64,000 nt of DNA, taken from contig JACQLA010000006.1 in NCBI GenBank assembly GCA_016204255.1, forward strand, positions 3,038 through 67,037. The letters are read 5' to 3'. The position numbers and the translations under genes are program-made. Shown here piece after piece: positions 1,263 through 15,336 of this stretch (its first letter is position 1; every line of letters begins with the position of its first letter). Source of the stretch: Candidatus Microgenomates bacterium. Its GTDB lineage: Bacteria > Patescibacteriota > Microgenomatia > JACQLA01. A model generated the notes under the pieces. That model was not told the DNA's origin and did no database searches. It worked only from the letters and a program-made list of their open reading frames with translations.

Positions 1263-1394
1263 ATTTGTAATCAATTAGTAGCCGTTAGCGAAGCGCGGCG
1301 TCTAATTGAGGAACCAATTTTATAAACTACAGACGGAAATATCCTTTAATCTAACATCTTCCCCGAGACTTTGTCAACCTTAAAAAGTCTTAAG

Positions 1395-2336
1395 TTACCC
1401 TAAAATCTGAGGTGCTTTTTGGCCTTTTAGACACTTGAATGCGGCTGCAGCGGCCGTTGCCCCCTGGGCACAGGCGCTAATTGCCTGTTGTAAAACATAA
1501 GAAGAAGTAGTGAAATCACCAGCAGCAAAAAGACCTGGGATATTTGTTTCCATCCATTCATTAACTTTAACAAAACCGTTTTTATCAATCTCAACTCCCA
1601 AAGGAATAAGTAGCGAAGTTCCGGGCACGCCTCCAATCTCAATAAAAACACCCTCTAAAGACAATTGATCGCTCCCCTGGTAAGGACTGTCTAAAACCAC
1701 GCCGGTTATTTTTACACCATCTCCTTTTATTTCCTTTAAATTAGTCTTTAAAATTTGTACAATTTTCGGATCTTTTTTTGCGTCTTCCAACCATACTGGT
1801 TCAGCCCGCAAAGCCTCCCCCCGATAAATGATATAAACTTTTTGAGCAAATTGCGCCGCATGCACGGCCCCTGAAACCGCCGCGTCTGAACCCCCAACCA
1901 AAGCCACGGTTTTCCCCCGGAAAAAGGGAGCGTCACAAGTGGTGCAATAAGAAACTCCCTTGCCCAAATATTCCTGCTCGCCAGGAACATTTAGCTTTCG
2001 ACGCTCAGTTCCCGTGGCCACAATAAGAGTCTTGGCTTCGTACTCGGTGTTATCTTCGGTAATAACCTTAAAATGGTCATTAAGCTTCTCTACCCTGCCT
2101 ACTGTTTTAGAAACAACCTCTGCTCCTAGATATTTAACCTGCTCAAGCATTTTTTCGCCCAGTTCAAAACCGGAAATAGAATTGAAGCCGGGAAAATTTT
2201 CCACGTTTGAGGCCAAAGTAATTGCTCCGCCTAATTTCTGTCCGATAACAAGGTGGCTAAGCTTATAACGAGAGGCATAAATAGAAGCCGTTAGTCCGGC
2301 CGGGCCAATACCGATGATGATAAGATCGTAAATCAT
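1395..2336 (-). CDS. trxB: thioredoxin-disulfide reductase
   Basis: 313 aa. FAD GxGxxG motif IIGIGPAGLTA, redox-active CTTCDA, second Rossmann motif VALVGGSDAAVSGA, C-terminal GDFT motif. Confidence 0.9.
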   Translation of the reverse strand: MIYDLIIIGIGPAGLTASIYASRYKLSHLVIGQKLGGAITLASNVENFPGFNSISGFELGEKMLEQVKYLGAEVVSKTVGRVEKLNDHFKVITEDNTEYEAKTLIVATGTERRKLNVPGEQEYLGKGVSYCTTCDAPFFRGKTVALVGGSDAAVSGAVHAAQFAQKVYIIYRGEALRAEPVWLEDAKKDPKIVQILKTNLKEIKGDGVKITGVVLDSPYQGSDQLSLEGVFIEIGGVPGTSLLIPLGVEIDKNGFVKVNEWMETNIPGLFAAGDFTTSSYVLQQAISACAQGATAAAAAFKCLKGQKAPQILG

Positions 2337-2364
2337 ATAGGATTAATAAAATTGGGGTTAAGGC

Positions 2365-2700
2365 TTATTCTTCGCTATCTGAACTTAGAACTTCATCAAT
2401 TTGTTGTTTAAATCTTTCTTTACTTTGAGCACCAATAATCGATTTAGCAATCTTTCCGTTTTTAAAAATTAAAAGAGTGGGTATGCTCATAATGTTGTAT
2501 TGAGAAGCGGTTTTACTATTTTCATCAACATTCAATTTTCCCACTTTCATCTTGCCCTCATAGTCTTTGGCTAACTCATCAACAATCGGACCAACCATTC
2601 GGCAGGGTGCACACCACTCAGCCCAAAAATCCACCAAAACTGGTAAGTTTGACTTGAGAACCTCAGTCTCAAAAGTTTCGTCCTTTAAAGTTATTTCCAT
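2365..2700 (-). CDS. trxA: thioredoxin
   Basis: 111 aa. WAEWCAPCR active site (WCxPC) and typical thioredoxin length. Confidence 0.9.
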   Translation of the reverse strand: MEITLKDETFETEVLKSNLPVLVDFWAEWCAPCRMVGPIVDELAKDYEGKMKVGKLNVDENSKTASQYNIMSIPTLLIFKNGKIAKSIIGAQSKERFKQQIDEVLSSDSEE

Positions 2701-2853
2701 TCATTCCTCCTTAACAATCGGGATTAAAATATTTTATCATAAAAATAACTCGATGACTACAACTATCTACAGGTTCTTGCTATTAGAATTTGCTATCATG
2801 AGATATAATATGTCAATTACATAAGCGCGGTTATTAACTAAATCGCGCTTGTT

Positions 2854-4266
2854 TTGTGTAATTTTATGGTGATGGTTGTTGAGGCCGCAAATCCCCGACT
2901 GAAGGAACGCGGCGGTTTAATTTTAAAAGAACCGGCTAATTTAGCCTATCTAAACGAAGCAATCGATGGGCTGCAGAATTTTATTGGCTGGGATGGCCGA
3001 ATTAAAGCTTCGACCATAGACGGTCAGTACCCTGCTGATTTTGGCCGCGACACGGCGACATTTATTCTTTTATGTAGCGAGGCTATGGCTGCCTTTCCTT
3101 TTGCCCGCTATAAAATTGCGCCCCTACTTCCCGCTTTTAAAGAAAGTCTGCGCTTTTTAGCCAAGCATCAAGGGCAAAGAGATGACCCGTTAACGGGCGA
3201 GAGAAAAGGGAAAATCCCCCACGAAATCCGCTTTGGCCCGGAAAATCAAATAAAACTTAAGGAATTGAAAGCCCATCGCTGGCCGGTAAAAGGGGACGAA
3301 GAAAATTTGAGTATGGTTAATTACTATAATATCGAAGCAACGGCCCTCTGGCTGATTGCCTTAAACCGTTTTTGTGAAGTGACTGAAGATTCTGATCTTT
3401 TAAAAGATTTACACCCTCAAATTGAAAACGCCTGCGAATATCTTCTAAATAAAGAGCATCCCGAAACGGGCTTGGTGCTTTTTCAGGGCAGAAGTAGTGA
3501 AGTAGGCTTAACTCACCAAAATTGGAAAGATTCCGGAGATTCCGCTCCCCCCGCCCCAATTTATTACACTGAAGTCCAGGGATATTATTATCAGGCCAAC
3601 CTCGTTGCAGCCAAAATTCTAAAAAACGAAGATCCGGAATCTAAATTGGCGAATGAGCTTCTGGAAAGAGCGGATAAACTGAAAAAAAGTTTTAATAAAT
3701 ACTTTTACTGGCCAGAACAGGGATATTATTATCAGGCTCTTTTACCTGGTGAAAATGGCGGTTTTATTCCCGTGAGAGAAGTGACTTCTAACCCTGGTCA
3801 CTGCCTTTATCTGGGAATTATTCAAGATGAAGAAAAGAAAAAATCTCTTGCGGAAAGATTAGTCCAGGAAGATATGCTATCGACAACCGGAATAAGAACT
3901 CTTTCATCTGATTCTTCCTGCTTTAACTTAAAAAGATACCAAATAGGGACTTCATGGCCACACGATAATGCAATGTGTGTTTTGGGTTTAAGGAAAATGG
4001 GTCACCATAAAAAGGCCAATACCGTTTCTTGCCGCAATCTTGATATTCTTTTAAGGCTTGGGTCGGCTTATGAATTTACCATTGCCGGAGAAGATGGTTC
4101 CGCCTGGATGGCAGAAGAATTGGCAAAAGTAAAAACCCCTCCTAATAAAAATCAAGCTTGGACTCAAGCAGCCATGGTTTATCTTCTGGCCACCACTCCT
4201 TCCTACAAATTCGAACAGGATGAGCTTGAGGAAGCTTTTTCTCAGTGGGAAAAAGTTGCCGCCTAA
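2854..4266 (+). CDS. glycogen-debranching-enzyme-like (amylo-alpha-1,6-glucosidase, GDE_C type) alpha/alpha-barrel glycoside hydrolase
   Basis: 470 aa. Motifs GRDTATF, HEIRFG and TSWPHDNAMCVLGL match my recollection of GDE_C family proteins. The ORF-track start is a TTG; the ATG at 2866 is an alternative. Confidence 0.65.
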   Translation: MCNFMVMVVEAANPRLKERGGLILKEPANLAYLNEAIDGLQNFIGWDGRIKASTIDGQYPADFGRDTATFILLCSEAMAAFPFARYKIAPLLPAFKESLRFLAKHQGQRDDPLTGERKGKIPHEIRFGPENQIKLKELKAHRWPVKGDEENLSMVNYYNIEATALWLIALNRFCEVTEDSDLLKDLHPQIENACEYLLNKEHPETGLVLFQGRSSEVGLTHQNWKDSGDSAPPAPIYYTEVQGYYYQANLVAAKILKNEDPESKLANELLERADKLKKSFNKYFYWPEQGYYYQALLPGENGGFIPVREVTSNPGHCLYLGIIQDEEKKKSLAERLVQEDMLSTTGIRTLSSDSSCFNLKRYQIGTSWPHDNAMCVLGLRKMGHHKKANTVSCRNLDILLRLGSAYEFTIAGEDGSAWMAEELAKVKTPPNKNQAWTQAAMVYLLATTPSYKFEQDELEEAFSQWEKVAA

Positions 4267-4269
4267 AAA

Positions 4270-5196
4270 TTAAGCGGCCTGAGGAAATTGTTCAAGCGTT
4301 TCTCTTAAAACTTCCGCCGCTTGCTGTGGAGGGACAATATTAATAATTCTACCTGTGGCCTGCTCAAAGCCAGCGGGTATTGTTAATCGAGGATTAAAGC
4401 GTATACACCACCCATCTCCATCAGGATAACGGGATTTTTTAATATAAAAATTATACGGGACTCCATCTTCTCTATGAGTTTTACTAGAAATAATTTGGGC
4501 AAAACGGTTATTTTCTAAAGCCCAAGTCGCTTTTCTGAATAAAGTTGCCACAGGCTTCAACTCCTCGTCATAAAGGTCGCCGAAAGTCCCGATTGGTCTT
4601 CGCGATTGGATAACCATCTCGAACGGAAATTCAGATTCTTCGGGACAATAGAGAACAAAATCTCCCTCCGTTGCCACAATAGTCCGCTCATCCAGTGGCA
4701 TCTCGTGATTATCCGGTTCGATCTCACCTGGATTTAGAGTTACAAGTTGAGTATGTAAGTGATCTTGAGAGGCTCCGGATGGTCTTTTTACATTTGCGAA
4801 AACCACAACGTCCTTCTTGTTTTGTTGATGCGCTTTAATTCTCTCTCGGTGGGCAAAAAGAACTATCTCAATTTGTCTTTCAGACATATTGGAGAAAGAA
4901 CCCGCATGATCGGGAGTTACAATTATTACTTCGTGATCCTCTACTCCCACCAAAGGGAATTTATTAGGGACTACACGAACTTCCCATCCCCCGGCTGAAT
5001 CCCGATCGCGAAAATAATTCCCCTCATTATTGTAAGTCCAAACTTCGGGAGGAGTTAAAATTTCGTTTCCAGGACAAAAAACGCAGGAAGGAGTTTTTTC
5101 GGGCGAAGAAGTAGCTTGATTTTCTTCTTGACGAAGTCTGTCAATCCGTCCAGGAGCGTAATAAACTTGCGATCCTCGCTCAGCTATTACTGGCAT
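4270..5196 (-). CDS. galactose-1-phosphate uridylyltransferase-like (GalT / HIT branch III) nucleotidyltransferase
   Basis: N-terminal zinc CxxC (SCVFCPGNE) and the HxHxQ active-site motif (QDHLHTQL) typical of the GalT / ADP-glucose phosphorylase family. Confidence 0.75.
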   Translation of the reverse strand: MPVIAERGSQVYYAPGRIDRLRQEENQATSSPEKTPSCVFCPGNEILTPPEVWTYNNEGNYFRDRDSAGGWEVRVVPNKFPLVGVEDHEVIIVTPDHAGSFSNMSERQIEIVLFAHRERIKAHQQNKKDVVVFANVKRPSGASQDHLHTQLVTLNPGEIEPDNHEMPLDERTIVATEGDFVLYCPEESEFPFEMVIQSRRPIGTFGDLYDEELKPVATLFRKATWALENNRFAQIISSKTHREDGVPYNFYIKKSRYPDGDGWCIRFNPRLTIPAGFEQATGRIINIVPPQQAAEVLRETLEQFPQAA

Positions 5197-5294
5197 TAAT
5201 CTTAAAAGATTTCTGTTTTCATGCAGAAATCTTTAGCCTTTCTTAAGTTTTTAAAACTTATAATTAGGCAGCCTATATCAAGATAACAAATAAA

Positions 5295-5323
5295 ATTTTA
5301 GTCGCTGGATTTAACCTTGTCAA
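5295..5323 (-). promoter_or_regulatory. sigma70-type promoter TTGACA-17-TAAAAT for the GalT-like gene
   Basis: On the minus strand: TTGACA (5323-5318), a 17-nt spacer, TAAAAT (5300-5295). Confidence 0.5.
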
Positions 5324-5352
5324 GACACCAAATTAACTTATAAAAAACACTA

Positions 5353-7632
5353 TTATTTCATTCTAAAGCGCTTTAAAAGAAGGGAGTTGGAGACAACTGA
5401 AATTGAAGAAAAAGCCATTGCGGCTGAGGCAATAATTGGCGAAAGTAAAACTCCGGCCAACGGATAAAGAACTCCCGCGGCTATAGGGATTCCCAGGGCA
5501 TTATAAATGTAGGCCCAGAATAAATTCATTTTGATCGTCCGCATGGTGGCCTTGGAAAGTTTAATCGCCCTCACCACCCCCCAAAGATCACCCGACATTA
5601 AAGTAATCCCGGCTGATTCCATAGCCACGTCAGTTCCAGTCCCCATGGCAATACCAATATCCGCTGCGGCTAAAGCCGGCGCGTCATTTATCCCATCCCC
5701 CACCATTGCAACAATTTTGCCTTTACCTTTAAGCTCTTGTACTTTTCGAGCCTTATCCACTGGAGCAACTTCAGCTAGCACCTCCTCAATCCCCACCTTT
5801 TTAGCAATTGCCTGGGCAGTTCTTTGATTATCACCGGTAATCATTATTGGTACAATTCCTATCTTTTTAAGCTCTTTCACTGCCTCAATCGTGGTCTCCT
5901 TTAAGGTATCTGCCACAGCAATAATGCCGGCTATTTCCAATTTGATTTTTCCTAAAGCTACCAGCATCGCTGTTTTTCCTTCATTCTCCAACCTCAACAT
6001 CTCTTTTTCCACTTCATCCGAGATCTTCACTCCACTGTTTTTCATCAAAAGTCTATTTCCTTTAACTATTTGCCATACGCTATCCGCCACACGCAGTTTA
6101 ACTTCTATCCCTTGTCCCTCAATAGCTTTGAATTCTTCGGGTTTTATAGGCTCTAGCTTTTCCTCGTTCGCCTTCTTAACTACCGCCTGACCCAAAGGGT
6201 GCTCACTGCGAGATTCCGCACTGGCAGCTAATTTCAGTAAATCTTTCCTATCTTTAATAGTTGATTTTTCAGTGATTATAGTATCCGTTACTTCCGGTTG
6301 ACCCTTGGTAAGGGTTCCGGTTTTATCAAAGATAACAGTTGTGATTTTATGAGCCAATTCTAGATTTGCGGCGTCTTTAATCAAAACTCCGTGCTCTGCT
6401 CCAATTCCGGTACCGACCATAATCGCCGTTGGTGTCGCCAGGCCTAAAGCACAGGGACAGGCAATAATTAAAACGGCAATGAAATTTAAAAAGGCAAAAG
6501 TAAAAGCCGGCTCTGGTCCAAAAACAAACCAGATTATAAAAGTTAAAATCGCTAAAGACATGACAATGGGGACAAAATATCCGGTTACGATATCAGCCAG
6601 TCTTTGGATTGGTGCCTTGGAGCCTTGAGCGGCGGCCACCAAATTTATAATTTGAGATAAAACTGTATCTTTCCCCACTTTCTCGGCTTTAAAAGTAAAA
6701 GAACCGGATTTATTAATTGTCGCTCCAATCACCTTGTCACCCTTTTTCTTATCTACCGGCACCGACTCACCAGTCACCATTGATTCATCAATTGATGAGC
6801 TTCCTTCCATAATCACGCCGTCCACGGGAATTTTTTCTCCGGGCCGCACGATGATCAAATCGCCCACCTTAACTTCGCTTATGGGAATGTCCACTTCTTT
6901 ATTATCGCGTAAAACGCGCGCGGTTTTGGGCGCTAAACCCATAAGCTTTTTAATGGCGGCCGACGTTCCGGCTTTAGCTTTGGCTTCTAGATAACGACCT
7001 AAAATAATCAATGTGCTAATAACGGCCGAGGCCTCAAAATAGGTGTCAACCGGAATCCCACCAATCTCAAATAGTTGTGGTGTAAATGTTGCTAAAACTG
7101 AATAAAAAAAGGCTGCCGAGGTGCCAATGGCAATTAAAGAATCCATATTGGCCGCTCGGTGTTTAAGTCCTCGCCAAAAACCCAGATAAAATTGTCCACC
7201 AACCCAGAATTGGACCGGGATGGTAAGAAAAAACATAATTAAGAACCGAGGAAATTGCGGGATTTGGGCCACAAAAGAAATCCATTGAGGGTAGGATAAA
7301 ATCATCACGGGGACTGAAAACAAAACGCCGAGCCAAAGTTTATTTCTTAAACCAACTACTTCTTTTTTTCGCTCATTATCCTCCCGATCTCCTTCGTTCT
7401 CTTCGTCCCCGACTGGGTCTTTTTTTTCAATAACCTCATACCCAACATCTCTGACGGCTTGAACCAGATCTTCACGCCTGACATTGTCGGATTCAACATT
7501 AACATTGGCTGTTTCCGTAGCAAAATTTACTCTTACACTTTTAACGCCCGCGACGCGGGAAAGCGCATGCTCAATATGAAGCGCGCAAGAAACACAATGC
7601 ATTCCTTTAATTGGTAACTCTATTTTTTCCAT
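5353..7632 (-). CDS. copA: copper-translocating P1B-type ATPase
   Basis: 759 aa. HMA domain [17 protein letters not shown] motif ([12 protein letters not shown]), DKTGTLT phosphorylation site, GDGINDAP hinge. Confidence 0.95.
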
Positions 7633-7663
7633 CTTTTTAAAGATAATTTAATTATGTCATTTC

Positions 7664-8083
7664 CTATTCCTTTACAATCATCTTTCCATGCAGCATTCCC
7701 ATTCCACAAGTAAAGGGAAACTCTCCCGCCTTCATTGGTGTAAACTCAACCTTTGTTTTGGCAAACGGTTCAAGCCGCGCTTTTATTTCTTTTTCTATTT
7801 TGCCACCTGCTACCCGCCACCTGCTATTTCCAAATATCACCCATTCGGAACAATCGCCGCTTTCGCGCCGATCAAAAGTTATTCTAACCGGCAATCCCTT
7901 TTTAACTAAAATTTCATTGGGTGAATAAGCTCCTTCTACCACAATGGTTGTTTCCTGAATCTTATCTCCATCGCCGGCGGAAACTTTGGCTTCACCCGTA
8001 TCTTTTTTTCCCAGAAAAAACCAGAGAATAAAAATAATTAACGCCGTCCCGCCAACTAAAACTAAAAGCTCTTGTCCGCTCAT
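7664..8083 (-). CDS. membrane-anchored cupredoxin-like domain protein
   Basis: 139 aa. N-terminal TM helix and C-terminal FTCGMGMLHGKMIV, reminiscent of Cupredoxin_1 proteins that accompany copA. Confidence 0.6.
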   Translation of the reverse strand: MSGQELLVLVGGTALIIFILWFFLGKKDTGEAKVSAGDGDKIQETTIVVEGAYSPNEILVKKGLPVRITFDRRESGDCSEWVIFGNSRWRVAGGKIEKEIKARLEPFAKTKVEFTPMKAGEFPFTCGMGMLHGKMIVKE

Positions 8084-8823
8084 TCGCCTTTGCTCCTTAT
8101 AAATTCCCGAGGTAAATCTTTTTGGAAAACCACACCTTTGGCTAGAAGATCTTTTTTTTCACCCTCATCCAAAAAATTCAGGGCAGTAATAGGGTGTAAG
8201 CCACTTTTTTCAATTAAAAAACGCAAAGAATTCTCTGGTGGCCAATCCCAGCTAATGAGTTTTAGACCAACACATTCGGCGTAGACCCGGGCATCGGTTG
8301 TGGCTTTGGTATTGGTTACAAGCCATCCCTGATTGAAAGATTCCTGGACATCCAAAAATCGCGCGTAGACATAGAGAGCGGTTTTGATATCAGTTTTGGC
8401 TCCGGGTTGATTATGGTATTTACATTCAATCATTAATCTCTCGTTGTCTTTTTGAGCGGCAACATCAATTTCATGGGCAACGCATTTACCCCTAACAATC
8501 TTCCCCACCTCGCAGCTATATCCGGAAAATCCTAAAATACCGGCAACGAACTTTTCAAAGGGAAAACCGGTGGGACCCAACTGCATAATGGCTTCCTTTA
8601 AATTATATCTTGAGCTCAATCTTGATTTTTCTTTTCTTAAAAGATCAAAGATATGGGAGTAAATTACTTTTGTGGGAATACCATTATAAAGTTCGCCTTT
8701 AACATGAGAAACTAATTGTGAGGTCAAATTATTATCTGCCCCGGCGCGCCGAAGCGATGCCCGAACCTTCTCTTCCGAGAAAGGCTCAATCTCTCCTGAG
8801 GCTTTAACAACATTTATTGACAT
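8080..8823 (-). CDS. ATP-cone domain fused to a PD-(D/E)xK (Mrr/restriction-endonuclease-like) nuclease domain
   Basis: The N-terminus (MSINVVKASGEIEPFSEEKVRASLRRAGA) resembles an ATP-cone. The C-terminal half carries HEIDVAAQ...LMIECKYH, a D...ExK nuclease motif. ATGA overlap with the downstream cupredoxin gene. Confidence 0.65.
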   Translation of the reverse strand: MSINVVKASGEIEPFSEEKVRASLRRAGADNNLTSQLVSHVKGELYNGIPTKVIYSHIFDLLRKEKSRLSSRYNLKEAIMQLGPTGFPFEKFVAGILGFSGYSCEVGKIVRGKCVAHEIDVAAQKDNERLMIECKYHNQPGAKTDIKTALYVYARFLDVQESFNQGWLVTNTKATTDARVYAECVGLKLISWDWPPENSLRFLIEKSGLHPITALNFLDEGEKKDLLAKGVVFQKDLPREFIRSKGE

Positions 8824-8827
8824 ATAC

Positions 8828-9286
8828 TCATCTTAAATCCCAACTAAACGATCTTTCAACCCCACCAATCTGAAAAATAAAAAGAGTTAAGGTTTTAACC
8901 CCACTTTTAACTTTCGGAAAACTTATCTGGCCTGAAAGATGATGTCCTCCGCGGCCACCAGTCCACCCAATCGCCCGATAGTCATTACCCAGGTTATCTT
9001 TTAAAATAATTATTTGCTGAAAATCAAAATCTAGGTTGACCGTGTGAGTGTCAAAAGTAACCAAAAAAATGTTCTCATTTTCGCCTCCTAATTTTTGTGG
9101 CACTACCTCAACCGTAACCTCAGCCTGACTATCTATTTTTGTTTCAAAGTTTTCTTTTATTGTATCAATAAACGTGTTTTGCGCCTCTTGGGGCGCTTTA
9201 CGATTCACAAACGTAAGAATTCCAATTAGCAGGGCCAACGCGGCCATAACTACTAAAGCTATTTTTTGATAGATACCGGTTTTCAT
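8828..9286 (-). CDS. hypothetical membrane-anchored protein (beta-rich, GGRGGHH motif)
   Basis: 152 aa with a single N-terminal TM helix. Tight spacing inside the copA operon. No family recognised. Confidence 0.5.
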   Translation of the reverse strand: MKTGIYQKIALVVMAALALLIGILTFVNRKAPQEAQNTFIDTIKENFETKIDSQAEVTVEVVPQKLGGENENIFLVTFDTHTVNLDFDFQQIIILKDNLGNDYRAIGWTGGRGGHHLSGQISFPKVKSGVKTLTLFIFQIGGVERSFSWDLR

Positions 9287-9288
9287 AC

Positions 9289-9768
9289 CTATTTTGCCAA
9301 CTTCTGGAAACGGAATGGATTTAAACTACACGATCTTTTTTTAATCATTAGAGTCATTAAAGAAATACCTGCTAGGTTAGCAAATATACCTAAGACAAAA
9401 ATTGGAACCTGATACTTTGTCACAAAAAGGCTGGCGCCGGAAAAACCCAGGAAAGGAATAATCTCCAAGCCGTGATGGGCGCAACAAGCAATCATCGCCG
9501 CACCAGAAACGCCTGCACTGGCTCCGGCGGTTACTTTAGATTGACTAGCGGCCAAATGTTTGCCGGAGCGAATAAATTGAAAAAGCCCTGCCTGAACCCC
9601 AAAGCCTAAAATTAGAGCACTCATCCAATATTTATAAAGTAGGAATTGCTCCCAGGGGTGACGCCAATCTTTTGTGATTGCGGTCAAAATCAAAAAGTAA
9701 ATAAAAATTAAAAAAAGACTGCCGGCAATACTAGCTATCACCGGATTTACATTAGTAATTTTTCTCAT
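9289..9768 (-). CDS. hypothetical polytopic membrane protein with intramembrane CCAHH motif
   Basis: 159 aa with 4-5 predicted TM segments and MIACCAHHGLE within a hydrophobic stretch. First gene of the packed string ending in copA. Confidence 0.5.
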   Translation of the reverse strand: MRKITNVNPVIASIAGSLFLIFIYFLILTAITKDWRHPWEQFLLYKYWMSALILGFGVQAGLFQFIRSGKHLAASQSKVTAGASAGVSGAAMIACCAHHGLEIIPFLGFSGASLFVTKYQVPIFVLGIFANLAGISLMTLMIKKRSCSLNPFRFQKLAK

Positions 9769-9849
9769 TTGTGTAACACGGTTTCGTACTTTACTTGCTC
9801 AACCGATTATACTGCGCCCGACAAAGCCGGACTTGTATAATAAATTCGC

Positions 9850-10107
9850 TTACTTGCTCAATTTATTATACGTCCAGGCCCAGATGTAACCAAAAACCCA
9901 ACTTATCGCTGTAAGCGAAATTAAACCAAGGATGAAGTTACTGAGGCTTCTTTGGGTGGTCGCCAATGATACAACGTTAATCCCATGAAACCAGGATTGA
10001 AATATGGCCAATAAAAAATCCGGTATTAGGACGGCAAGTAATGCGCAAGCAATATAAAAAACGGTAGTTGCCAAAGTTAAAGAATTGGCAAAAGGCAGCT
10101 CCTTCAT
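9850..10107 (-). CDS. small two/three-TM membrane protein
   Basis: 85 aa, hydrophobic. Possibly DUF5676-like, recalled only weakly. Confidence 0.45.
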   Translation of the reverse strand: MKELPFANSLTLATTVFYIACALLAVLIPDFLLAIFQSWFHGINVVSLATTQRSLSNFILGLISLTAISWVFGYIWAWTYNKLSK

Positions 10108-10161
10108 TATTTTTTCACCTCCTTACTAAGAAGAGAGTCAAAATTAGTCAGGTTAAGAATT

Positions 10162-10773
10162 CTATTTACTTTTCTTATCCCCCTCTTTCCACATCCAGCG
10201 GATAAAGGCGATTAAGGCCACCACAACCAGAATCCAAGTTAACCAGGAAAGAATGCTCCAGATCCAAAAATTACCGCCGGCCTGACTCATCATGCCCCCT
10301 TGACCCCAACTCATCATTCCGGGACCCATCATATTTTGTTCACCTCCCTTCTGGGATAAGTTTTTCATCATCCCCATCATTCCAAAACCCATCATTCCAT
10401 CCCAACCGTTTAGGGTCGCCCCAACATCACAACCGCTCATTCGTTTACCCATTACAATGTGCATTTTTTCTAAGTTTTCTTTCCCCATCCTTTGCTCCAT
10501 CTGCTTATCCATCACCTCATGATTGGCGGTGGATCCAGCCATACGCTCCATAAAAAACTCACCTAAAGATTCAAGCTCGCCATCGCTGAGATTTTCGCAT
10601 TTCACCTGATCTGTGGAAAGTTTCTGCCAAATTTCCTGCCCCTGTACTATCTCTTCTTCACTGGCTAGTACGCTGATTGAACCAGCTGTTAAAAGGAAAA
10701 TAAAACCTAGTAAAATGAGGTTGATTAAGATCCCCTTGATTCTTAATTCATGATTCATAATTTCTGCTTTCAC
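10162..10773 (-). CDS. Met/Gly-rich membrane protein, putative Cu(I)-binding
   Basis: 203 aa. N-terminal signal/anchor, Met/His-rich helical part (HEVMDKQMEQRMG...MHIVMGKRMSGC), MMGFGMMGMMKN...MMGPGMMSWGQGGMM tract, C-terminal TM helix. 4-nt overlap with csoR. Confidence 0.6.
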   Translation of the reverse strand: MKAEIMNHELRIKGILINLILLGFIFLLTAGSISVLASEEEIVQGQEIWQKLSTDQVKCENLSDGELESLGEFFMERMAGSTANHEVMDKQMEQRMGKENLEKMHIVMGKRMSGCDVGATLNGWDGMMGFGMMGMMKNLSQKGGEQNMMGPGMMSWGQGGMMSQAGGNFWIWSILSWLTWILVVVALIAFIRWMWKEGDKKSK

Positions 10774-11042
10774 CCCCTTTTTTTATCCAAGATTGCTAGA
10801 ATTTCCCTTATTGCTTTTTCTTTGGTTTCGCCACCATCCTTAACGGCCTGGGAAAGGCAAGTATGAAGATGATTGTCAATGATAAACTGATCCGCGGATT
10901 TGAGGGCGTTTTGAACAGCCAATGATTGTTGAAGAATATCAATACAGTAGCGGTCATCCTCAAGCATTTTTTCAACGCTTTTTAAATGACCAACTGCTCG
11001 CCTTATACGGTTAATCGCTTTTTTCTTAAAAGCATCCTGCAT
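10770..11042 (-). CDS. csoR: CsoR/RcnR-family metal-sensing transcriptional repressor
   Basis: 90 aa. DRYCIDILQQSLAVQNALK ... HLHTC gives the C-H-C ligand fingerprint of copper-sensing CsoR (DUF156). Confidence 0.85.
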   Translation of the reverse strand: MQDAFKKKAINRIRRAVGHLKSVEKMLEDDRYCIDILQQSLAVQNALKSADQFIIDNHLHTCLSQAVKDGGETKEKAIREILAILDKKRG

Positions 11043-11048
11043 AAACTA

Positions 11049-11098
11049 ATCATAGAATACTTTTAAACCGATGTCAATATCCCCCCAGGGAGGATATT
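11049..11098 (-). promoter_or_regulatory. csoR promoter (TTGACA-17-TATGAT) with abutting CsoR-type operator AATATCCCCCCAGGGAGGATATT
   Basis: 23-bp palindrome at 11076-11098 (10 of 11 arm positions pair). On the minus strand the -35 is at 11077-11072 and the -10 at 11054-11049. Only 6 nt separate the -10 from the ATG at 11042. Confidence 0.6.
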
Positions 11099-11136
11099 GA
11101 GGATTCCTAAAAACTTGTTTGAAGGGATTTGGATTT

Positions 11137-12126
11137 TTAAGCGCCGCAGCTGCCGCCACCTTGTTGAACCGGCGGCAAAGATTTAATTTGAGGCCGAATC
11201 TGATTATAACCTTTAGCACTGGAATAGTTAAAACCCAAGACTTCCTGTGGATTAACTTTGTCCCAGGTCGTTCCCCTTTCAGCAAAATAAGCAGCTAATT
11301 CAACATAGGTTTGAGGGAACCAGTAAGAATTGACTGCCAGGGCATTTTTAAACATCTCTTGCTCGGTGGCTCCCTGAGCGGCCATTAGTTCCAAAAGCCC
11401 CAACATCGCCATCCCGTGATTACAATCCGGGAAATGAGTTGAATTCCCACAACAAGGTCTGTAAACCCCTTGGGAGACTTTTTCCACTAGTGCTTGCTGT
11501 TCGGGCTTCAACGTCACAAGCGGCAGGCTGCTGTAATAATCGGTGGCTTTGCCTTTAGCCAATGTCCAGCCGCCGGTTGAAGCAAAGTTTCCGACCTGTT
11601 TTGGATCACGCATCATTTCCCCCTTTTCCAAAACATCGTTTTTATTGGCCAAACCAAAAGCCCACAAAAGATCAAGAATCACTTGGGAGTTTTGTTTAGT
11701 CATTTTTAGTTTTCCGTTTCCACTGCCAGAGATAAGCTTGCGATCATCATCGCTTAAGGTTCTCCCCCCTTGAGTGAAAATCTGCTCGAATTTTGTCTGA
11801 TCGATTACACCGGCATCAATTAGTTTTTTTCCAAAATCACCCCAGACAACAGGTAGTTCCACCCCTCGCTCGGGCAAAACAATTTTTTCCAGCTGCGTTA
11901 TATCAACGTTACCGGCACCATTAGTGTTGGAGGCAGAAGGAGCAGCTGAGCCGCTCTTTTTTAAACTCTGTATTCTTGGCGAAATTTTTAAATCGATTTG
12001 AAAAAGAAAATTAGCGGCGAGAGTGGCGAGAAGAAAAAAGGCAACAATCATCCAGGGATTAATATTTTTAAGAGGGGCGGATTCGTTTGTCATTTTTAAC
12101 TCCTTTTTAAAATAAAAGTATAACAA
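11137..12126 (-). CDS. secreted/anchored Cys-rich hypothetical protein (CCGNSTHFPDCNHG motif)
   Basis: 329 aa ORF; the likely start is MTNESAP at about 12093. One N-terminal TM helix, a conserved-looking RPCCGNSTHFPDCNHGMAMLG block, and a C-terminal GGGSCGA. No family recognised. Confidence 0.5.
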   Translation of the reverse strand: MLYFYFKKELKMTNESAPLKNINPWMIVAFFLLATLAANFLFQIDLKISPRIQSLKKSGSAAPSASNTNGAGNVDITQLEKIVLPERGVELPVVWGDFGKKLIDAGVIDQTKFEQIFTQGGRTLSDDDRKLISGSGNGKLKMTKQNSQVILDLLWAFGLANKNDVLEKGEMMRDPKQVGNFASTGGWTLAKGKATDYYSSLPLVTLKPEQQALVEKVSQGVYRPCCGNSTHFPDCNHGMAMLGLLELMAAQGATEQEMFKNALAVNSYWFPQTYVELAAYFAERGTTWDKVNPQEVLGFNYSSAKGYNQIRPQIKSLPPVQQGGGSCGA

Positions 12127-12181
12127 AAATCCATATCAAATAAAATATAACAAAATTATGCCACGCCTTTGGCTTGTATAA

Positions 12182-13417
12182 TTATATAAAATAGAACAGG
12201 ATTATAACTCCTATACCAATCATTGTAAGGCCATAAATCAATCTCATCCGGGGTTCATTTTGTTCTTCAAAATTAGTCATCTTTTCGACAATAATGCGAT
12301 TTCCGGTTGCTCCCAAGATTAGAACTAAAGGCAAAATAAACATTAGATTATAAATTAGAAGATAAATAAGACCTAATGAGGCTGTTGTCTTGGCGGCCAA
12401 AAGAGTGACAATCGCAACATAAATTCCGCCCGAGCAAGGAAAAGTGCAAAGGCCAACAAAAATCCCCAAAAGAAGAGTGGTTGGCAGAGTTCCCTTATGC
12501 ATTAAATCCAAGATTTTTTGTTTCCCTGGCATGGGAATCCGTAAAGAGATGGGAAAACGGGGAAAAAAGAAATTCAACAAATTCACAAAACCCAAAACTA
12601 TTACCAATATCGCTCCTATTTTAGCCATAAGATGAGGAGTGCTGGTAAAAATAACTGCTTTCCAAATTCCCAGACCGATTAAAAGATAGGTTAAATAAAT
12701 TGCCGTGATATAAACCCCGCCGTATTTAAAAACTGAAAGCCGGGATTTTTTAAGCATAAAAATAAAGGCAATTAAAAACAGTAAAATAGCGAAGGCACAA
12801 GGGTTTAATCCATCTAAAAATCCAGAAATTAGCACGGTGGGAAGAAGAAATTGTTCCCCCGCTTTAGCAACTTGTTGACCTTGAAAATCCTTTAAAGCCT
12901 CACTTATCGGGGTGTTGATGTCATAAGTTTTTACCTCGCCACCTGTCCAAACGCGATAATTTTTAATTGTTCCGTGCATTTCATCCTGCCAGATAAGCAC
13001 CTGTCCGGTGGTCTGACTTGACAATCTTGCGGTTAAAGCATCGGTGATAATTTTATCTGGAACATGACCTGCTAAGATTACCGCCGATTTTTGATCATCT
13101 GAAGACCGTTTAATAAAAGTCATCATGTGGCCGATTATGTCCTGGGGAATTTTTTCCTGTTCAATTCTTGAGGAAAGTTCAACACGAAAATTGGGGTTGC
13201 CAATATAATCCTTAACGGCTACCTCAATACCATAATCCTTTAATGCCGGCAAAAGGGTTTTGTTTAAATAGGGACCACAGTCAGAACAGGCCTCGCTGTA
13301 AAAAATCTCTGCCGTTGTCTCCGAAGCTGTCTTTTCTTGAGCAAAAGTTGAATGAGTATTAAAAAGGGTAAAAACTGCAAGAAACAAAAGAAGCAGTTTC
13401 GTTTTTAGAAGGGACAT
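12182..13417 (-). CDS. CcdA/DsbD-family thiol-disulfide electron-transfer membrane protein with N-terminal extracytoplasmic CxxC domain
   Basis: 411 aa. Signal peptide, soluble domain with YSEACSDCGPY, then a DsbD_2-type TM core with LDGLNPCAFAILLF and FPCSGGIYVAIV. Confidence 0.75.
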   Translation of the reverse strand: MSLLKTKLLLLFLAVFTLFNTHSTFAQEKTASETTAEIFYSEACSDCGPYLNKTLLPALKDYGIEVAVKDYIGNPNFRVELSSRIEQEKIPQDIIGHMMTFIKRSSDDQKSAVILAGHVPDKIITDALTARLSSQTTGQVLIWQDEMHGTIKNYRVWTGGEVKTYDINTPISEALKDFQGQQVAKAGEQFLLPTVLISGFLDGLNPCAFAILLFLIAFIFMLKKSRLSVFKYGGVYITAIYLTYLLIGLGIWKAVIFTSTPHLMAKIGAILVIVLGFVNLLNFFFPRFPISLRIPMPGKQKILDLMHKGTLPTTLLLGIFVGLCTFPCSGGIYVAIVTLLAAKTTASLGLIYLLIYNLMFILPLVLILGATGNRIIVEKMTNFEEQNEPRMRLIYGLTMIGIGVIILFYFI

Positions 13418-13419
13418 TT

Positions 13420-13974
13420 TTACTTAATAACGTTGGCGGAAAAATTAATATCCAGATAACTGTTTTGGGGATCGGAAAAGAAAATGCGAACCACCCGCTT
13501 AGCAAAACCGACACCCGATGGGCCATGTGCATTCGGATCAAATTTAGCTGTTACAAAGGCCTCGCCATTCTTTAAGATATCGGTTTGCCAGCTTGGATTA
13601 GACGTATGACCCGGCATTCCAAAATAAGGACTCTCTTTATCCCCTACTTTGATTGAGGCCTCAGTACACATACATGAAGTTTCAACCTTCGCTACTTTTA
13701 AATCACGATCGGTTTTGTTTTTAAGGATAAAGGTTTTTGTAACTACTCCATTTTTCATGGAAACATCACCGAACTCAAAGGACTGGGGAGAAACCTCCAC
13801 ACCGGAAATCGGCTGCAGCTGGGCGTTATTTACTGCCGGCGTACTAGTCATGGAGGTAGAATTTGAACTTTGCGACACAGATTGGCTGCCGTTGAAAACA
13901 AAAATGGTAAGGCCTAAAATTACCAACAAAGCAAAGGACATTAAAAACCAAGGGTTTTTGGGAAAGTTCGACAT
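13420..13974 (-). CDS. DUF1573-domain protein, membrane anchored
   Basis: 184 aa. FEFGDVSMKNGVVTKTFILKNKTDRDLKVAKVETSCMCTEA matches the DUF1573 pattern (F.FG...N.G...L.I..v..sC.Ct). Confidence 0.65.
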   Translation of the reverse strand: MSNFPKNPWFLMSFALLVILGLTIFVFNGSQSVSQSSNSTSMTSTPAVNNAQLQPISGVEVSPQSFEFGDVSMKNGVVTKTFILKNKTDRDLKVAKVETSCMCTEASIKVGDKESPYFGMPGHTSNPSWQTDILKNGEAFVTAKFDPNAHGPSGVGFAKRVVRIFFSDPQNSYLDINFSANVIK

Positions 13975-13980
13975 ATTTTT

Positions 13981-14003
13981 GATATCCCCCCTGAGGGGAT
14001 ATT
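13981..14003 (-). promoter_or_regulatory. second CsoR-type operator GATATCCCCCCTGAGGGGATATT
   Basis: Near-perfect palindrome that shares ATATCCCCCC...GGATATT with the csoR operator. It lies between a TTGACA-17-TAAACT promoter (minus strand, about 14010-14038) and the ATG at 13974. Confidence 0.6.
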
Positions 14004-14051
14004 AGAAAGTTTATCCGCCCTGTACTTTTTTGTCAAGGACTAATCTTATTT

Positions 14052-14594
14052 TTAGATCAGCAGCATTGTCTCGACAATAAAAATAACAAAAACTGTGCCC
14101 AAATAGATTCTCTGCTCCCTATCGCTGATTTCTCTATGAATATTCCAGAAAAGTCTTTGCTTTAAAAAAGCTTTATTGCTTCTTAGATCAAACTCTTCCT
14201 TGATTAGATGCAATATCATTCCCGAAACCAAACCACTTACAAAAAGACTACCGCCGGAAGTAATAACATAAAAGCCTAAAATCATTAGCGCGATTTGAAA
14301 GAGAGCAGAATGCAAAATTGGTTGCTCCAGGCTCTGGTGACGATTAAAGGAAGAAAAAATTGCTTCCCTCCAGTTGCCGGATTTTAGTTGATCCGTAGTT
14401 ATTGTCGCATCGGGAAGATGATTATCGGAAAGAAAAGAGGAAAAGATTGGATCGAAAAACAAAACAATTAAACCAATCACTCCCCCAAAAATAAACAAGA
14501 TAAATGCCAAAGAAAAATATCGACCAGCCAGAAAAACTATTAAAGCATAAATTAAAAAGGTCAAAAGATGGCGAGTGATTTCTGCTTTATTCAC
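14052..14594 (-). CDS. hypothetical polytopic membrane protein
   Basis: 180 aa, multiple hydrophobic segments. 8-nt overlap with the upstream ZIP gene. Confidence 0.45.
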   Translation of the reverse strand: MNKAEITRHLLTFLIYALIVFLAGRYFSLAFILFIFGGVIGLIVLFFDPIFSSFLSDNHLPDATITTDQLKSGNWREAIFSSFNRHQSLEQPILHSALFQIALMILGFYVITSGGSLFVSGLVSGMILHLIKEEFDLRSNKAFLKQRLFWNIHREISDREQRIYLGTVFVIFIVETMLLI

Positions 14595-15336
14595 TTAGAG
14601 TTAATCTGGTTAAAACTGGCAATAGGGCCCCTAAAATTACAAAAAGAATGTTTAAAATCTTATAGTCTCTATGAACTTCGGGAATAAGATCTGATGCGGC
14701 CACATAAAGAAAAGATCCGGCAGAAAAGGCTAAACCTGCTCCGAGGAACGCTTCATTCACTTCTTTTATCCAAACGAGGGCAACTAAAGCTCCGAGAGGA
14801 GTAGCTAGCGCCACGATATAAGAATAAAATATCGACTGGGCTTTCGAATAACCACTGTGTAAAAGAATGGAGATCGATGATATCCCCTCGGGAACTTCAT
14901 GTAAAATTACAGAAAGCGTTGCCAAAATCCCCAAACCAAATGAAACCTCAAAACCTAAAGCAATGACTATCCCGTCAATTAGGGAATGAAGTGTAATTCC
15001 GAAAATAGCCATCGCCCCCAAGTGGTGATGAGGACTGGAATCTATCTCCTCGCACTGCCCACCCCGGCATCGATGAAGAATTAAACTGTGCTCCAAAAGA
15101 TAAAAGAAGATGAAGGTAATAAGAATTAATGGCAACGCCATCGAAGAAAGTTCTTGGGCCTCGGGGATCAAATCAAGGAAAGCAAACGAAAGTAAAACGC
15201 CAGAGGCAAAAGAAATCAAATAAATAACGTTTTTTTCTACCCACTTCTTACTCCAAACAACAAGGTAAATACCAAGTATCGTGGCCAGTCCGGCAAAAAC
15301 GCTAAAAAGTAAGGTATTAGAAAATTGAGGGCTCAT
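14587..15336 (-). CDS. zupT: ZIP-family divalent metal transporter
   Basis: 249 aa. ZIP signature HEVPEG (VILHEVPEGISS), a His-rich loop (SSPHHHLG), about 8 TM segments. Confidence 0.85.
   Translation of the reverse strand: MSPQFSNTLLFSVFAGLATILGIYLVVWSKKWVEKNVIYLISFASGVLLSFAFLDLIPEAQELSSMALPLILITFIFFYLLEHSLILHRCRGGQCEEIDSSPHHHLGAMAIFGITLHSLIDGIVIALGFEVSFGLGILATLSVILHEVPEGISSISILLHSGYSKAQSIFYSYIVALATPLGALVALVWIKEVNEAFLGAGLAFSAGSFLYVAASDLIPEVHRDYKILNILFVILGALLPVLTRLTLSE

Follow-up and report, generated by a model that had tools for sequence, protein, structure and literature searches.

Why should a gene for a predicted nucleotide sensor fused to a nuclease lie in the middle of a copper operon? 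The question is raised by a 247-aa reading frame in the window, by which we mean the whole 64,000-nt stretch of Candidatus Microgenomates DNA that was analysed. An earlier note made from the letters alone had suggested either a defence or abortive-infection effector or a stress-induced nuclease hitch-hiking on a stress operon. The gene, its parts and the second ATP-cone gene of the window are as follows.

8080..8823, minus strand: target gene, an ATP-cone / PD-(D/E)xK nuclease / AF1548-like C-terminal domain protein of 247 aa (ORF list, sequence, Pfam), with its stop codon at 8080..8082
8578..8817, minus strand: ATP-cone domain, residues about 3-82 (PF03477, Foldseek, alignment to E. coli NrdR, conservation)
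8254..8568, minus strand: Mrr_cat-type PD-(D/E)xK nuclease domain, residues 86-190 (PF04471, hmmsearch to 1Y88, conservation)
8083..8253, minus strand: AF1548-like C-terminal domain, residues 191-247 (profile of family C-termini against 1Y88, PF22357)
55199..55645, minus strand: canonical NrdR (Zn_ribbon_NrdR and ATP-cone)

The N-terminal 90 or so residues had been read as an ATP-cone and the remainder as a nuclease with an intact D...ExK core, and both assignments hold, as Pfam placed both domains above their curated cut-offs. For the cone, PF03477 matched residues 3-62 with 31.1 bits (cut-off 25.8, E 3.4e-7), a match that spans only 67 of the 88 profile positions. The AlphaFold model of the protein is confident (mean pLDDT 91.3, pTM 0.83) and gives the cone a beta-hairpin at 4-14 (strands 4-6 and 12-14) followed by helices 17-26, 31-42, 51-64 and 69-80, and in Foldseek this domain superposes on the NrdR cones of 9fvr, 9gex and 7p37 (probability 1.0, rmsd 1.9-2.2 A over 81-84 columns). 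In the model, the fold of a beta-hairpin and four helices is thus superposable on that of known ATP-cones. The putative adenine-nucleotide contacts are V5, K7, E13, F15 and K19, of which K7, E13, F15 and K19 align with K53, E59, F61 and K65 of E. coli NrdR. The same five residues correspond in the alignment to V48, K50, E56, F58 and K62 of an NrdR whose nucleotide binding is impaired by mutation of V48, K50, E56 or K62, and whose contacts to the adenine are made by E56 and F58 (PMC9110341). Across 150 diverse family members chosen to represent 50%-identity clusters, K7 occurs in 148, K19 in 147 and F or Y at position 15 in all 150, while E13 is present in 113 and substituted in 37. From these residues the cone is predicted to bind ATP and/or dATP, like the cones of NrdR and the ribonucleotide reductases (RNRs).

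The window also holds a canonical NrdR, as the note had stated, and the target is not a second one, since it has no Zn-ribbon and scores 13.8 bits with TIGR00244 against a cut-off of 124.65. The two RNR large-subunit ORFs adjacent to NrdR contain no ATP-cone. BLASTP did not align the target cone with the window's NrdR, and the kinship of the target cone to NrdR is visible by profile and structure only. What the target shares with NrdR and RNR cones is the fold and the identical spacing of the inner-site K, E, F and K. It differs from them in its output domain, which is a nuclease where they have a Zn-ribbon for DNA binding or a reductase, and its cone is only weakly similar in sequence to that of NrdR (E about 0.007-0.02) and shorter than that of E. 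coli NrdR through two 4-residue loop deletions.

With regard to the nuclease domain, PF04471 (Mrr_cat) matched residues 86-190 with 31.8 bits (cut-off 21, E 1.7e-7). The motif HEIDVAAQ carries D120 and LMIECKYH carries E133-x-K135, and with E90 these form the core (codons 8554..8556 for E90, 8464..8466 for D120, 8425..8427 for E133 and 8419..8421 for K135), to which E118, R155 and D158 also belong. Conservation of the catalytic residues, which the note had made a test of its reading, is nearly complete, with E90, E118, D120, K135, R155 and D158 in 150/150 representatives and E133 in 149/150, and C114, H117, H137 and C184 are near-invariant (134-144 of 150). The note overlooked a third domain at the C-terminus and an existing crystal structure, 1Y88, of protein AF1548 from Archaeoglobus fulgidus. 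A profile of family C-termini matches residues 121-174 of 1Y88 (E 2.6e-10), W192, P195, L200, P211 and T213 being conserved in this part of the target. PF22357 (AF1548-like_C) matched 15 of 26 members, and the window's own segment scanned alone gave no match. A helix-hairpin-helix was considered for the conserved 'GLHPITAL' segment and rejected, as a PDB profile search and per-member Pfam scans returned only 1Y88 and PF22357.

Outside the cone the likeness to AF1548 is extensive, as 1Y88 (Mrr_cat and PF22357) has both the nuclease and the C-terminal domain; it was found by hmmsearch with E 2.4e-53 over profile positions 93-251, and by Foldseek with E 8.8e-16, 42% identity and a TM-score of 0.75 on the target. 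Residues D38, E51 and K53 of AF1548, predicted to be catalytic (PMC1821046, PMC1874628), are equivalent to the D...ExK residues of the target. AF1548 differs in having a Q where the target has H117, and in its length, since the deposited chain is of 199 aa and the match starts at residue 22, which leaves no space for an ATP-cone. It is a 'hypothetical protein' of structural genomics and a restriction endonuclease by prediction only, and our literature search found no published assay for any family member, AF1548 included. The target is accordingly a predicted metal-dependent nuclease, with cleavage activity suggested by its conserved residues. The database entry 100% identical to it (P0001) is labelled 'restriction endonuclease [Candidatus Microgenomates bacterium]', a name that is misleading for the ATP-cone nuclease family.

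The target lies among the following features, listed from the copA end of the unit.

5353..7632, minus strand: CopA-type P1B ATPase, final gene of the unit (HMA, CPC and DKTG motifs, annotation of the homolog in locus L001)
7664..8083, minus strand: Cupredoxin_1 gene, its ATG overlapping the target stop as ATGA (ORF list, Pfam)
8828..9768, minus strand: two small membrane-protein ORFs, 8828..9286 (152 aa) and 9289..9768 (159 aa, CCAHH) (ORFs, Pfam)
9850..10107, minus strand: DUF5676 gene, with the next two at the head of the transcription unit (Pfam)
10162..10773, minus strand: Met/Gly-rich protein gene, at the head of the transcription unit
10770..11042, minus strand: csoR, head of the transcription unit (Pfam)
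11077..11049, minus strand: sigma-70-like promoter TTGACA-17-TATGAT, the best of the region (promoter scan)
11077..11097, minus strand: 21-bp palindrome ATATCCTCCC-T-GGGGGGATAT, CsoR-type operator-like, overlapping the promoter -35 (read from the sequence)
13982..14002, minus strand: second operator-like copy of the palindrome, with 1 mismatch, upstream of a DUF1573 / DsbD-like / 329-aa unit (13974..11137)
14036..14008, minus strand: promoter-like site near the second palindrome copy
14052..14594, minus strand: small protein, c24 homolog (tblastn, locus maps)

The placement of the target inside the copA operon and its packing in a tight string, both described in the note, are borne out by the ORF coordinates: the target stop overlaps the cupredoxin start, 4 nt separate the end of ORF 8828..9286 from the target ATG, and 2 nt separate ORF 9289..9768 from ORF 8828..9286. 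The whole string is co-directional and stands behind a promoter with a GC-tract palindrome of CsoR type. This palindrome was spotted in the promoter region first and then used as the search pattern, and the resulting 2 copies compare with 0.01 expected by chance. The generic CsoR box TACCCCN4GGGGTA had 0 matches. No convincing terminator was found between csoR and copA, and no regulatory RNA near the target gene in Rfam. The promoter, the palindrome, the close packing of the genes and this absence of a terminator signal of any conviction together support one csoR-to-copA unit. The closest relative, L001, has the same csoR-to-copA layout, an equivalent box upstream of csoR and the same 4-nt overlap between the target and cupredoxin genes. 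We infer that the target is co-transcribed with csoR, although the upstream gaps of 54 and 81 nt could hold internal promoters, and on this layout the target would probably be transcribed when copper de-represses CsoR.

The two small ORFs directly upstream of the target are unique to the window's genome, missing from the locus of a 71%-identical relative and without cluster partners in 85 other loci. They had been candidates for the conserved upstream partners c24 and c48, and were rejected because neither falls into a cluster with other proteins, and 14052..14594 holds the homolog of c24. In the relatives L002, L004, L005 and L007 c24 is directly upstream of the target gene, and its homolog in the window is the mark of an ancestral neighbour, now 5.2 kb from the target. 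The copper genes around the target seem to be insertions made in the window's lineage, and the copper-operon embedding appears to be a lineage-specific arrangement. The base composition gives no sign of a recent foreign origin of the cassette.

The family extends well beyond this lineage. There are 2086 homologs at E<=1e-3, which puts the fusion far beyond chance, and 603 family clusters at E<=1e-30, from at least 598 species of Patescibacteria, Bacteroidota and Chlamydiota and one archaeon, with a mean identity between phyla of 42% over the full length. The target gene is an ordinary member of this ATP-cone/AF1548 nuclease family. Neighbourhoods were compared for the 80 best-scoring loci of a capped scan, using crude ORF calls and single-linkage blastp clusters, with partner-gene identities assigned by NCBIfam, and many of these loci are phylogenetically related. 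In Bacteroidota and Chlamydiota the target homolog heads an operon-like string with a co-oriented, tightly spaced beta-CASP RNase; an archaeal-type nucleoside/nucleotide phosphorylase and a PRPP synthetase often come next, and the string is set among genes for universal stress proteins (Usp), Hsp20 and P-type ATPases. In 30 of the 82 loci compared the +1 gene encodes the beta-CASP RNase (gaps -106 to +33 nt), and the Bacteroidota-labelled loci contain Usp in 32/53 and the beta-CASP RNase in 35/53; a stress-type neighbour is absent in 21/82. The string of ATP-cone protein, MBL hydrolase, thymidine-phosphorylase family protein and PRPP synthetase is also found on a Pontibacter plasmid and on a Criblamydia plasmid, where it adjoins a P-type ATPase, phosphoketolase, GlgP and acetate kinase. 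A literature search returned nothing relevant on an ATP-cone with Mrr, restriction endonuclease or universal stress protein, nor on the trio of partner genes.

The Bacteroidota and Chlamydiota neighbourhoods resemble hypoxia/dormancy islands. The known low-oxygen island lxa of Burkholderia cenocepacia is of similar make-up and includes a 30-fold induced 'metal-dependent RNase' (PMC3721108). The features in common with lxa and the Mycobacterium DosR regulon are several Usp, Hsp20/alpha-crystallin, a cation P-type ATPase, Crp/Fnr-type regulators, acetate kinase, a metal-dependent RNase and ribose/nucleotide genes (PMC3721108), a likeness of gene content and not of demonstrated regulation, and no ATP-cone nuclease is reported for lxa or DosR in the text consulted. 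This gene set is missing from the window and the other Patescibacteria loci: no homolog of the beta-CASP RNase, phosphorylase, PRPP synthetase, Usp or Hsp20 was found within the 64 kb, which offer only the copper unit and Trx/TrxR, and the Patescibacteria loci compared likewise lack all five partners. Of the two roles suggested in the note, that of a stress nuclease is the better fit to this stress-linked context, and its hitch-hiking half needs refinement, as a widespread family with recurrent partners is not a stray passenger.

A role in defence, as a Type IV (Mrr-like) restriction enzyme or as an abortive-infection effector released when a phage perturbs the ATP/dATP pool, is what the design of sensor plus nuclease, typical of defence effectors, and the 'restriction endonuclease' label bring to mind. 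The catalytic domain does score as Mrr_cat, above the gathering score, and among its nearest characterised folds in Foldseek are the CARF-gated Can2 and Cdn1 and the modification-dependent REases MspJI and AspBHI. As in Can2, Card1 and Cdn1 of type III CRISPR systems, a small nucleotide-binding sensor is fused to a PD-(D/E)xK nuclease, and there are weak matches to Card1_endonuc and, in PADLOC, to the PD-DExK parts of CARF (CARF_PDDEXK) and ZorD proteins. It is the nuclease halves alone that match the CARF nucleases, and weakly; the sensor of the target is an ATP-cone with ATP/dATP as presumed ligand in place of cyclic oligoadenylate, no cas genes or other CRISPR/defence context are nearby, and Mrr_N or any other N-terminal domain for reading modified DNA is absent. 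Defence genes are usually patchy and fast-evolving, whereas this family is conserved over its full length across phyla in stable synteny with metabolic and stress genes. A tblastn search of 50,697 phage records returned no match and one of 72,556 plasmids just 2, and the viral structure library gave matches to single domains only. The survey for defence islands that the note had called for found no recurrent defence family among 149 neighbouring proteins of 28 loci, the maximum of 3 members being a QueC cross-hit in PADLOC. The defence guess of the note is thus unsupported, and we consider it very unlikely. Still harder to credit is a non-catalytic regulator, a nucleotide-sensing repressor like NrdR which uses the nuclease fold for DNA binding only; PD-(D/E)xK folds are occasionally recruited as DNA-binding modules and the target cone is most similar to those of NrdR, but invariant or nearly invariant catalytic residues in 150 representatives are unexpected for an inactivated fold, the target has no Zn-ribbon or HTH domain, and no conserved target operon is common to all lineages.

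Two further alternatives concern copper stress and DNA repair. A true part in copper or thiol-stress defence, for example as a nuclease switched by metal or disulfide through C114/H117/H137/C184, would agree with the conservation of these residues (134-144/150), with the CsoR-type operator of the unit in the window, and with the heavy-metal P1B ATPases (CPC or CPH) that occur within the retrieved flanks of about 20 of 85 loci in several arrangements in Patescibacteria and Bacteroidota; CsoR occurs in 4 of the 13 Patescibacteria-labelled loci compared, and Trx/TrxR lies downstream in that clade. The copper genes, however, shift position, flanking the target in the window and L001, lying wholly downstream in L002, diverging in L008 and being absent from L004 and L005, a pattern which agrees with insertions made more than once into a permissive stress locus. 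In other loci P2-type (PEGL) ATPases take the P1B position, most loci have no copper gene, and a copper-specific role appears quite improbable. An endonuclease of DNA repair or replication, specific for the structure of damaged or stalled DNA and tied by its cone to the dNTP pool (dATP versus ATP), is unlikely but deserves some weight. ATP-cones elsewhere report the dATP/ATP ratio (PMC9110341), the strict conservation of the catalytic core is as expected of a housekeeping enzyme, some members are labelled 'Holliday junction resolvase' in JGI annotations, and 7-9 Patescibacteria-type loci have a gene for a DinB-type Y-family polymerase no more than a few genes away from the target. This adjacency is confined to one clade and often on the opposite strand, though, no further repair genes recur near the target, and outside that clade the prevailing partner is a beta-CASP nuclease of the RNA type, accompanied by enzymes of nucleotide catabolism.

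Our best reading, held tentatively and at a little short of even confidence, is that of a nuclease gated by adenine nucleotides and serving a turnover of nucleic acids that is linked to stress. ATP-cones are known to switch oligomeric state in response to nucleotides. The N-terminal cone of the target would take up ATP and/or dATP, and its last helix in the model continues directly into the catalytic helix (E90) of the AF1548/Mrr-type nuclease, so that occupancy of the cone might gate cleavage, most likely through an altered oligomeric state, and the small AF1548-like C-terminal domain would probably assist in holding the substrate, DNA or RNA. Such a protein would serve as a housekeeping or stress nuclease and not in defence, and would tie the breakdown of nucleic acid to the nucleotide and energy state of the cell, with the products feeding nucleotide salvage. 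For the window's protein the salvage role would be carried over by analogy from other phyla, because the window and the Patescibacteria loci are without those partners. A more speculative extension, which we regard as possible and somewhat doubtful, makes the cone nuclease the nucleotide-feedback-controlled entry step of an undescribed, conserved pathway for cannibalising nucleic acids under energy or oxygen limitation, in which the cone-gated nuclease would be followed in order by the beta-CASP RNase, the archaeal-type nucleoside/nucleotide phosphorylase and the PRPP synthetase.

To our knowledge, the understanding of ATP-cones is so far confined to dNTP synthesis, for which they act as the master switch in RNR enzymes and in the NrdR repressor. 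If the pathway reading is true, no earlier instance would exist of ATP-cone allostery over an enzyme outside ribonucleotide reduction. A switch of dNTP synthesis wired to a nuclease would carry the same principle of regulation over to the degradation of nucleic acids. The family's association with a beta-CASP RNase, a phosphorylase and a PRPP synthetase in Usp/Hsp20 islands offers a testable model of recycling in dormant or starving cells, and the family includes cultured marine Flavobacteriaceae, which can be grown and mutated; Formosa maritima, Tenacibaculum skagerrakense and Aquimarina sp. SS2-1 are examples of cultured flavobacteria with an ortholog. It also provides a plausible role for 1Y88, an orphan structure for 20 years. 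In the nucleotide-auxotrophic Patescibacteria the lone nuclease would, on the pathway reading, serve the homeostasis of the nucleotide pool, and in these salvage-dependent bacteria the family may point to a step at which the supply of nucleotides is controlled.

The ATP-cone/nuclease gene (the target) lies in a tightly packed string of genes on the minus strand, and the window also holds a second gene for an ATP-cone protein:

7664..8083, minus strand: cupredoxin gene, downstream of the target, its ATG overlapping the target stop codon as ATGA
8080..8823, minus strand: target ORF, 247 aa
8828..9286 and 9289..9768, minus strand: two small membrane-protein ORFs upstream of the target, one with a CCAHH motif
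55199..55645, minus strand: canonical NrdR

The target is separated by 4 nt from 8828..9286, which is in turn separated by 2 nt from 9289..9768. In Pfam, an ATP-cone scores 31.1 bits over residues 3-62 (gathering cut-off 25.8), and residues 86-190 match the Mrr_cat restriction-endonuclease domain at 31.8 bits (cut-off 21). The coordinates, motifs, operon description and ATP-cone plus Mrr_cat architecture proposed in the earlier note are thus borne out by the ORF listing, the ATGA overlap, the two gaps and the Pfam domains, as is its claim of a coexisting NrdR. The NCBIfam scan of the target gave no specific model, and PADLOC only weak matches to the PD-DExK halves of CARF and ZorD proteins. 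Within 50953..55645, NrdR precedes two ribonucleotide reductase (RNR) large-subunit ORFs (one of 733 aa carrying a TSCPD domain, the other of 619 aa), neither with an ATP-cone, which leaves NrdR and the nuclease as the only cones in the window. The barrel domain of the 619-aa ORF was matched in two stretches, and this ORF may be interrupted or divergent.

Given 88 homologs, AlphaFold models the target with confidence (mean pLDDT 91.3, pTM 0.83). The model's top Foldseek match in the PDB is 1Y88, the structure of Archaeoglobus fulgidus AF1548 (E 8.8e-16, 42% identity), followed by NrdR ATP-cones from E. coli and Streptomyces (probability 1.0, rmsd ~2 Å over ~82 residues) and then by the nuclease domains of Can2, Cdn1, MspJI and AspBHI. 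The family profile matches 1Y88 (E 2.4e-53) over the nuclease and the C-terminal ~55 residues; unlike the target, AF1548 has no room for a cone, as its 199-aa chain is matched from residue 22. A helix-hairpin-helix found no support for the C-terminal segment, which was instead matched by Pfam PF22357 ('AF1548-like, C-terminal') in 15 of the 26 members scanned and, as a profile, by 1Y88 (E 2.6e-10). AF1548 has only ever been predicted as a restriction endonuclease, with catalytic residues D38, E51 and K53 (PMC1821046, PMC1874628), and our literature search found no biochemical paper on AF1548 or on any ATP-cone/nuclease fusion.

In Streptomyces coelicolor NrdR, mutants of V48, K50, E56 or K62 are impaired in nucleotide binding; E56 forms a hydrogen bond with the adenine 6-NH2, F58 contributes to adenine selection, and K50 has its E. 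coli counterpart in K53 (PMC9110341). A phmmer alignment with E. coli NrdR places target K7 on K53, E13 on E59, F15 on F61 and K19 on K65. Counted over 150 representatives of 50%-identity clusters, these cone positions are largely kept (K7 in 148, G10 in 144, F/Y15 in 150, K19 in 147, E13 in 113), and the intact nuclease core read from the single sequence holds across these representatives, with E90, E118, D120, K135, R155 and D158 found in 150/150 and only E133 falling short, at 149/150. The most conserved stretch, Y73 to E90, connects the last cone helix with the catalytic helix, and we infer that it would be the obvious path for allosteric coupling. From sequence, structure prediction and conservation, the target quite probably has a cone that senses adenine nucleotides and controls an intact PD-(D/E)xK nuclease. 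Separately, a Cys/His quartet near the active-site end of the sheet (C114, H117, H137 and C184; window 8419..8484 and 8272..8274), kept in 134-144 of the 150 representatives, might serve as a metal or redox site, structural or regulatory.

The architecture is already catalogued in databases, and within its family the window's gene is typical. A word-indexed search yielded 2086 homologs, with 49-100% identity to the query among the top 120, under names as varied as 'restriction endonuclease', 'ATPase', 'ATP cone domain-containing protein' and 'Holliday junction resolvase'. When 1.84 billion cluster representatives were searched exhaustively with a profile, 1806 matched at E<=1e-3 and 603 at E<=1e-30, almost all of them over the full length. 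Among GTDB species, each represented by one genome, at least 598 have the family, including many Patescibacteria, many Bacteroidota (cultured Flavobacteriaceae among them), Balneolaceae and a Hadesarchaeon. Patescibacteria-labelled loci share 50% identity on average and Bacteroidota-labelled loci 55%, against 42% for comparisons across the two groups.

The earlier note had raised the possibility of a defence effector, and a restriction or abortive-infection nuclease would fit the name under which some homologs are deposited. The distribution of the family speaks against this: tblastn of the target matched none of 50,697 phage records and just two of 72,556 plasmids, conservation is strong and synteny stable. 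Among 149 proteins within three genes either side of the target, from 28 loci without obvious stress context, PADLOC detected no recurrent defence family; the top match (three members) was a QueC cross-match to PP-loop enzymes, and a few MADS components were found in one of the 28 loci. Taken together, these results make a restriction or abortive-infection role very unlikely. A viral structure library gave single-domain matches only to the target model.

Neighbourhoods were compared by calling ORFs in 85 loci and the window, clustering them with blastp by single linkage and annotating the clusters; 80 loci were the top scorers among the matches listed and are not independent by descent. Taxa are named after the record titles, and for TPA metagenome bins several of these labels look unreliable. 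The earlier note had proposed a survey for defence islands versus metal operons, and the loci showed stress and metal genes with no recurrent defence neighbours. In Bacteroidota-labelled loci a beta-CASP metallo-beta-lactamase RNase recurs, being the +1 gene in 30/82 loci with gaps of -106 to +33 nt, which are approximate since ORF calling was crude (longest ORF, greedy overlap filter); its closest NCBIfam models, Cas14 and aCPSF1, are both under cut-off. Upstream of the target are tandem-domain universal stress protein (Usp) genes (97 copies in 32 loci), and other recurrent neighbours are Hsp20, REC-cNMP-Crp regulators, SRPBCC proteins, 2-hydroxyacid dehydrogenase, P-type ATPases of CPC, CPH or PEGL type, an archaeal-type 'putative thymidine phosphorylase' (TIGR02645/NF003338; the AMP-phosphorylase model is under its cut-off) and a PRPP synthetase of the PRK07199 subfamily. 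Four further families recur near the target in Bacteroidota loci (L021, L033, L047, L077, L079 and others) and match no Pfam or NCBIfam model: c10 (~133 aa, -1 in 10 loci), c4 (~138 aa, often duplicated around Hsp20), c11 (~222 aa) and c28 (~90 aa, between target and beta-CASP gene). A related string is found in Chlamydiota:

1..14886, Criblamydia sequanensis plasmid NZ_LK031773 (L086), co-directional: CusA, P-type ATPase, phosphoketolase, glycogen phosphorylase, ATP-cone nuclease, MBL hydrolase, thymidine-phosphorylase family, PRPP synthetase, acetate kinase

With an integrase and an AbiE toxin-antitoxin pair beside it, this string looks like an island for energy reserves and nucleotide catabolism, and the run from ATP-cone protein through MBL hydrolase and thymidine-phosphorylase family to PRPP synthetase is also annotated on a Pontibacter plasmid. 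In gene content, the level at which the two were compared, these neighbourhoods are like the low-oxygen-activated lxa locus of Burkholderia cenocepacia: the lxa paper lists USPs, alpha-crystallin, a cation ATPase, CRP/Anr regulators, acetate kinase, ribokinase, a class II RNR and a 'metal-dependent RNase' induced 30-fold, and likens lxa to the DosR regulon, but mentions no ATP-cone nuclease (PMC3721108).

The beta-CASP, phosphorylase, PRPP synthetase, Usp and Hsp20 genes are absent from the window and the Patescibacteria loci examined, where neighbours are clade-specific: DUF2079 membrane proteins, DinB-type polymerases, small proteins of clusters c24 and c48, and thioredoxin/thioredoxin reductase. 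In one relative (L005) the order is c47-c48-c24-target-Trx-TrxR-Fer4-DSBA, and homologs of several of these genes occur in the window:

398..1051: DSBA-like gene
1395..2336: thioredoxin reductase
14052..14594, minus strand: c24 homolog, from a homology search of the window

Genes for CsoR, cupredoxin and CopA occur near Patescibacteria targets in several arrangements, placed as a cassette after the target in L002 and flanking it on both sides in the window and its closest relative, L001 (71% identity). As their positions vary, the target looks like an older resident around which copper genes were repeatedly inserted; the ORFs at 8828..9286 and 9289..9768 have a counterpart in none of the 85 related loci, the L001 operon included. 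Heavy-metal ATPases lie within the fetched flanks of ~20/85 loci in two phyla, which is by informal estimate more than chance would give, and some functional tie to metal or ion stress is possible. In one Patescibacteria-type clade (L010, L015, L016, L023, L029, L031, L043, L070, L074 and L085, several with implausible labels such as 'uncultured Gammaproteobacteria') a ~790-aa DUF2079 membrane protein precedes the target, and a DinB-type Y-family polymerase lies a few genes away, often convergent.

The best σ70-like site in 5000-14800 (TTGACA-17-TATGAT, 11077..11049, minus strand) is just upstream of csoR, and a palindrome occurs there and at one further site:

11077..11097: 21-bp palindrome ATATCCTCCC-T-GGGGGGATAT, overlapping the -35 of the csoR promoter
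13982..14002: second copy, ahead of a DUF1573/DsbD-like unit, overlapping or adjoining a σ70-like promoter

Over both copies, the GC-tract palindrome reads ATATCC[T/C]CCC-N-GGG[G/A]GGATAT. Two matches compare with 0.01 expected by chance, and an equivalent box is present at the csoR promoter of L001. Both window copies look like CsoR operators, bounding a predicted copper regulon of ~8.6 kb (13974 to 5353). There is no convincing terminator-like site between csoR and copA, a hairpin follows 3' of copA (5205..5234), and together with promoter and palindrome this suggests that the target is probably transcribed within a CsoR-controlled csoR-copA unit, although internal promoters could hide in the upstream gaps of 54 and 81 nt. 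Base composition is flat across the region. Overlapping the csoR stop by 4 nt, 10162..10773 encodes a 203-aa protein with Met/Gly-rich repeats (MMGFGMMGMM, MMGPGMM, GGMM) that matches no Pfam family and looks like a methionine-rich copper-binding protein. A ZIP-family metal transporter gene (14587..15336) overlaps the start of the c24 homolog, so that the copper regulon abuts another metal-transport gene. Between copA and a GDE_C/MGH1-like glycoside hydrolase gene lies that of a GalT/Ap4A-phosphorylase-like HIT-family protein (DUF4921, 4270..5196), with its own strong promoter-like site (5323..5295).

Elsewhere in the window, a 563-aa ORF (17364..19055) unusually fuses Mur ligase middle and C domains to a C-terminal 6-O-methylguanine-DNA methyltransferase DNA-binding domain. 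Rfam found nothing but three tRNAs; divergent tRNA-Met genes and tRNA-Ile(TAT) abut a 779-aa TraG/VirD4/HerA-like coupling-ATPase ORF (43757..46096), and the segment 42027..46096 may mark the border of an integrated element, conjugative or for secretion.

For the family, the neighbourhoods in other phyla give moderate support to a physiological reading by analogy, in which stress- or starvation-linked nucleic-acid turnover by the cone-gated nuclease would feed nucleotide salvage, and in the genome of the window a copper-responsive unit would drive expression of the gene; the domain-level and physiological readings combined are advanced tentatively, at a little short of an even chance.
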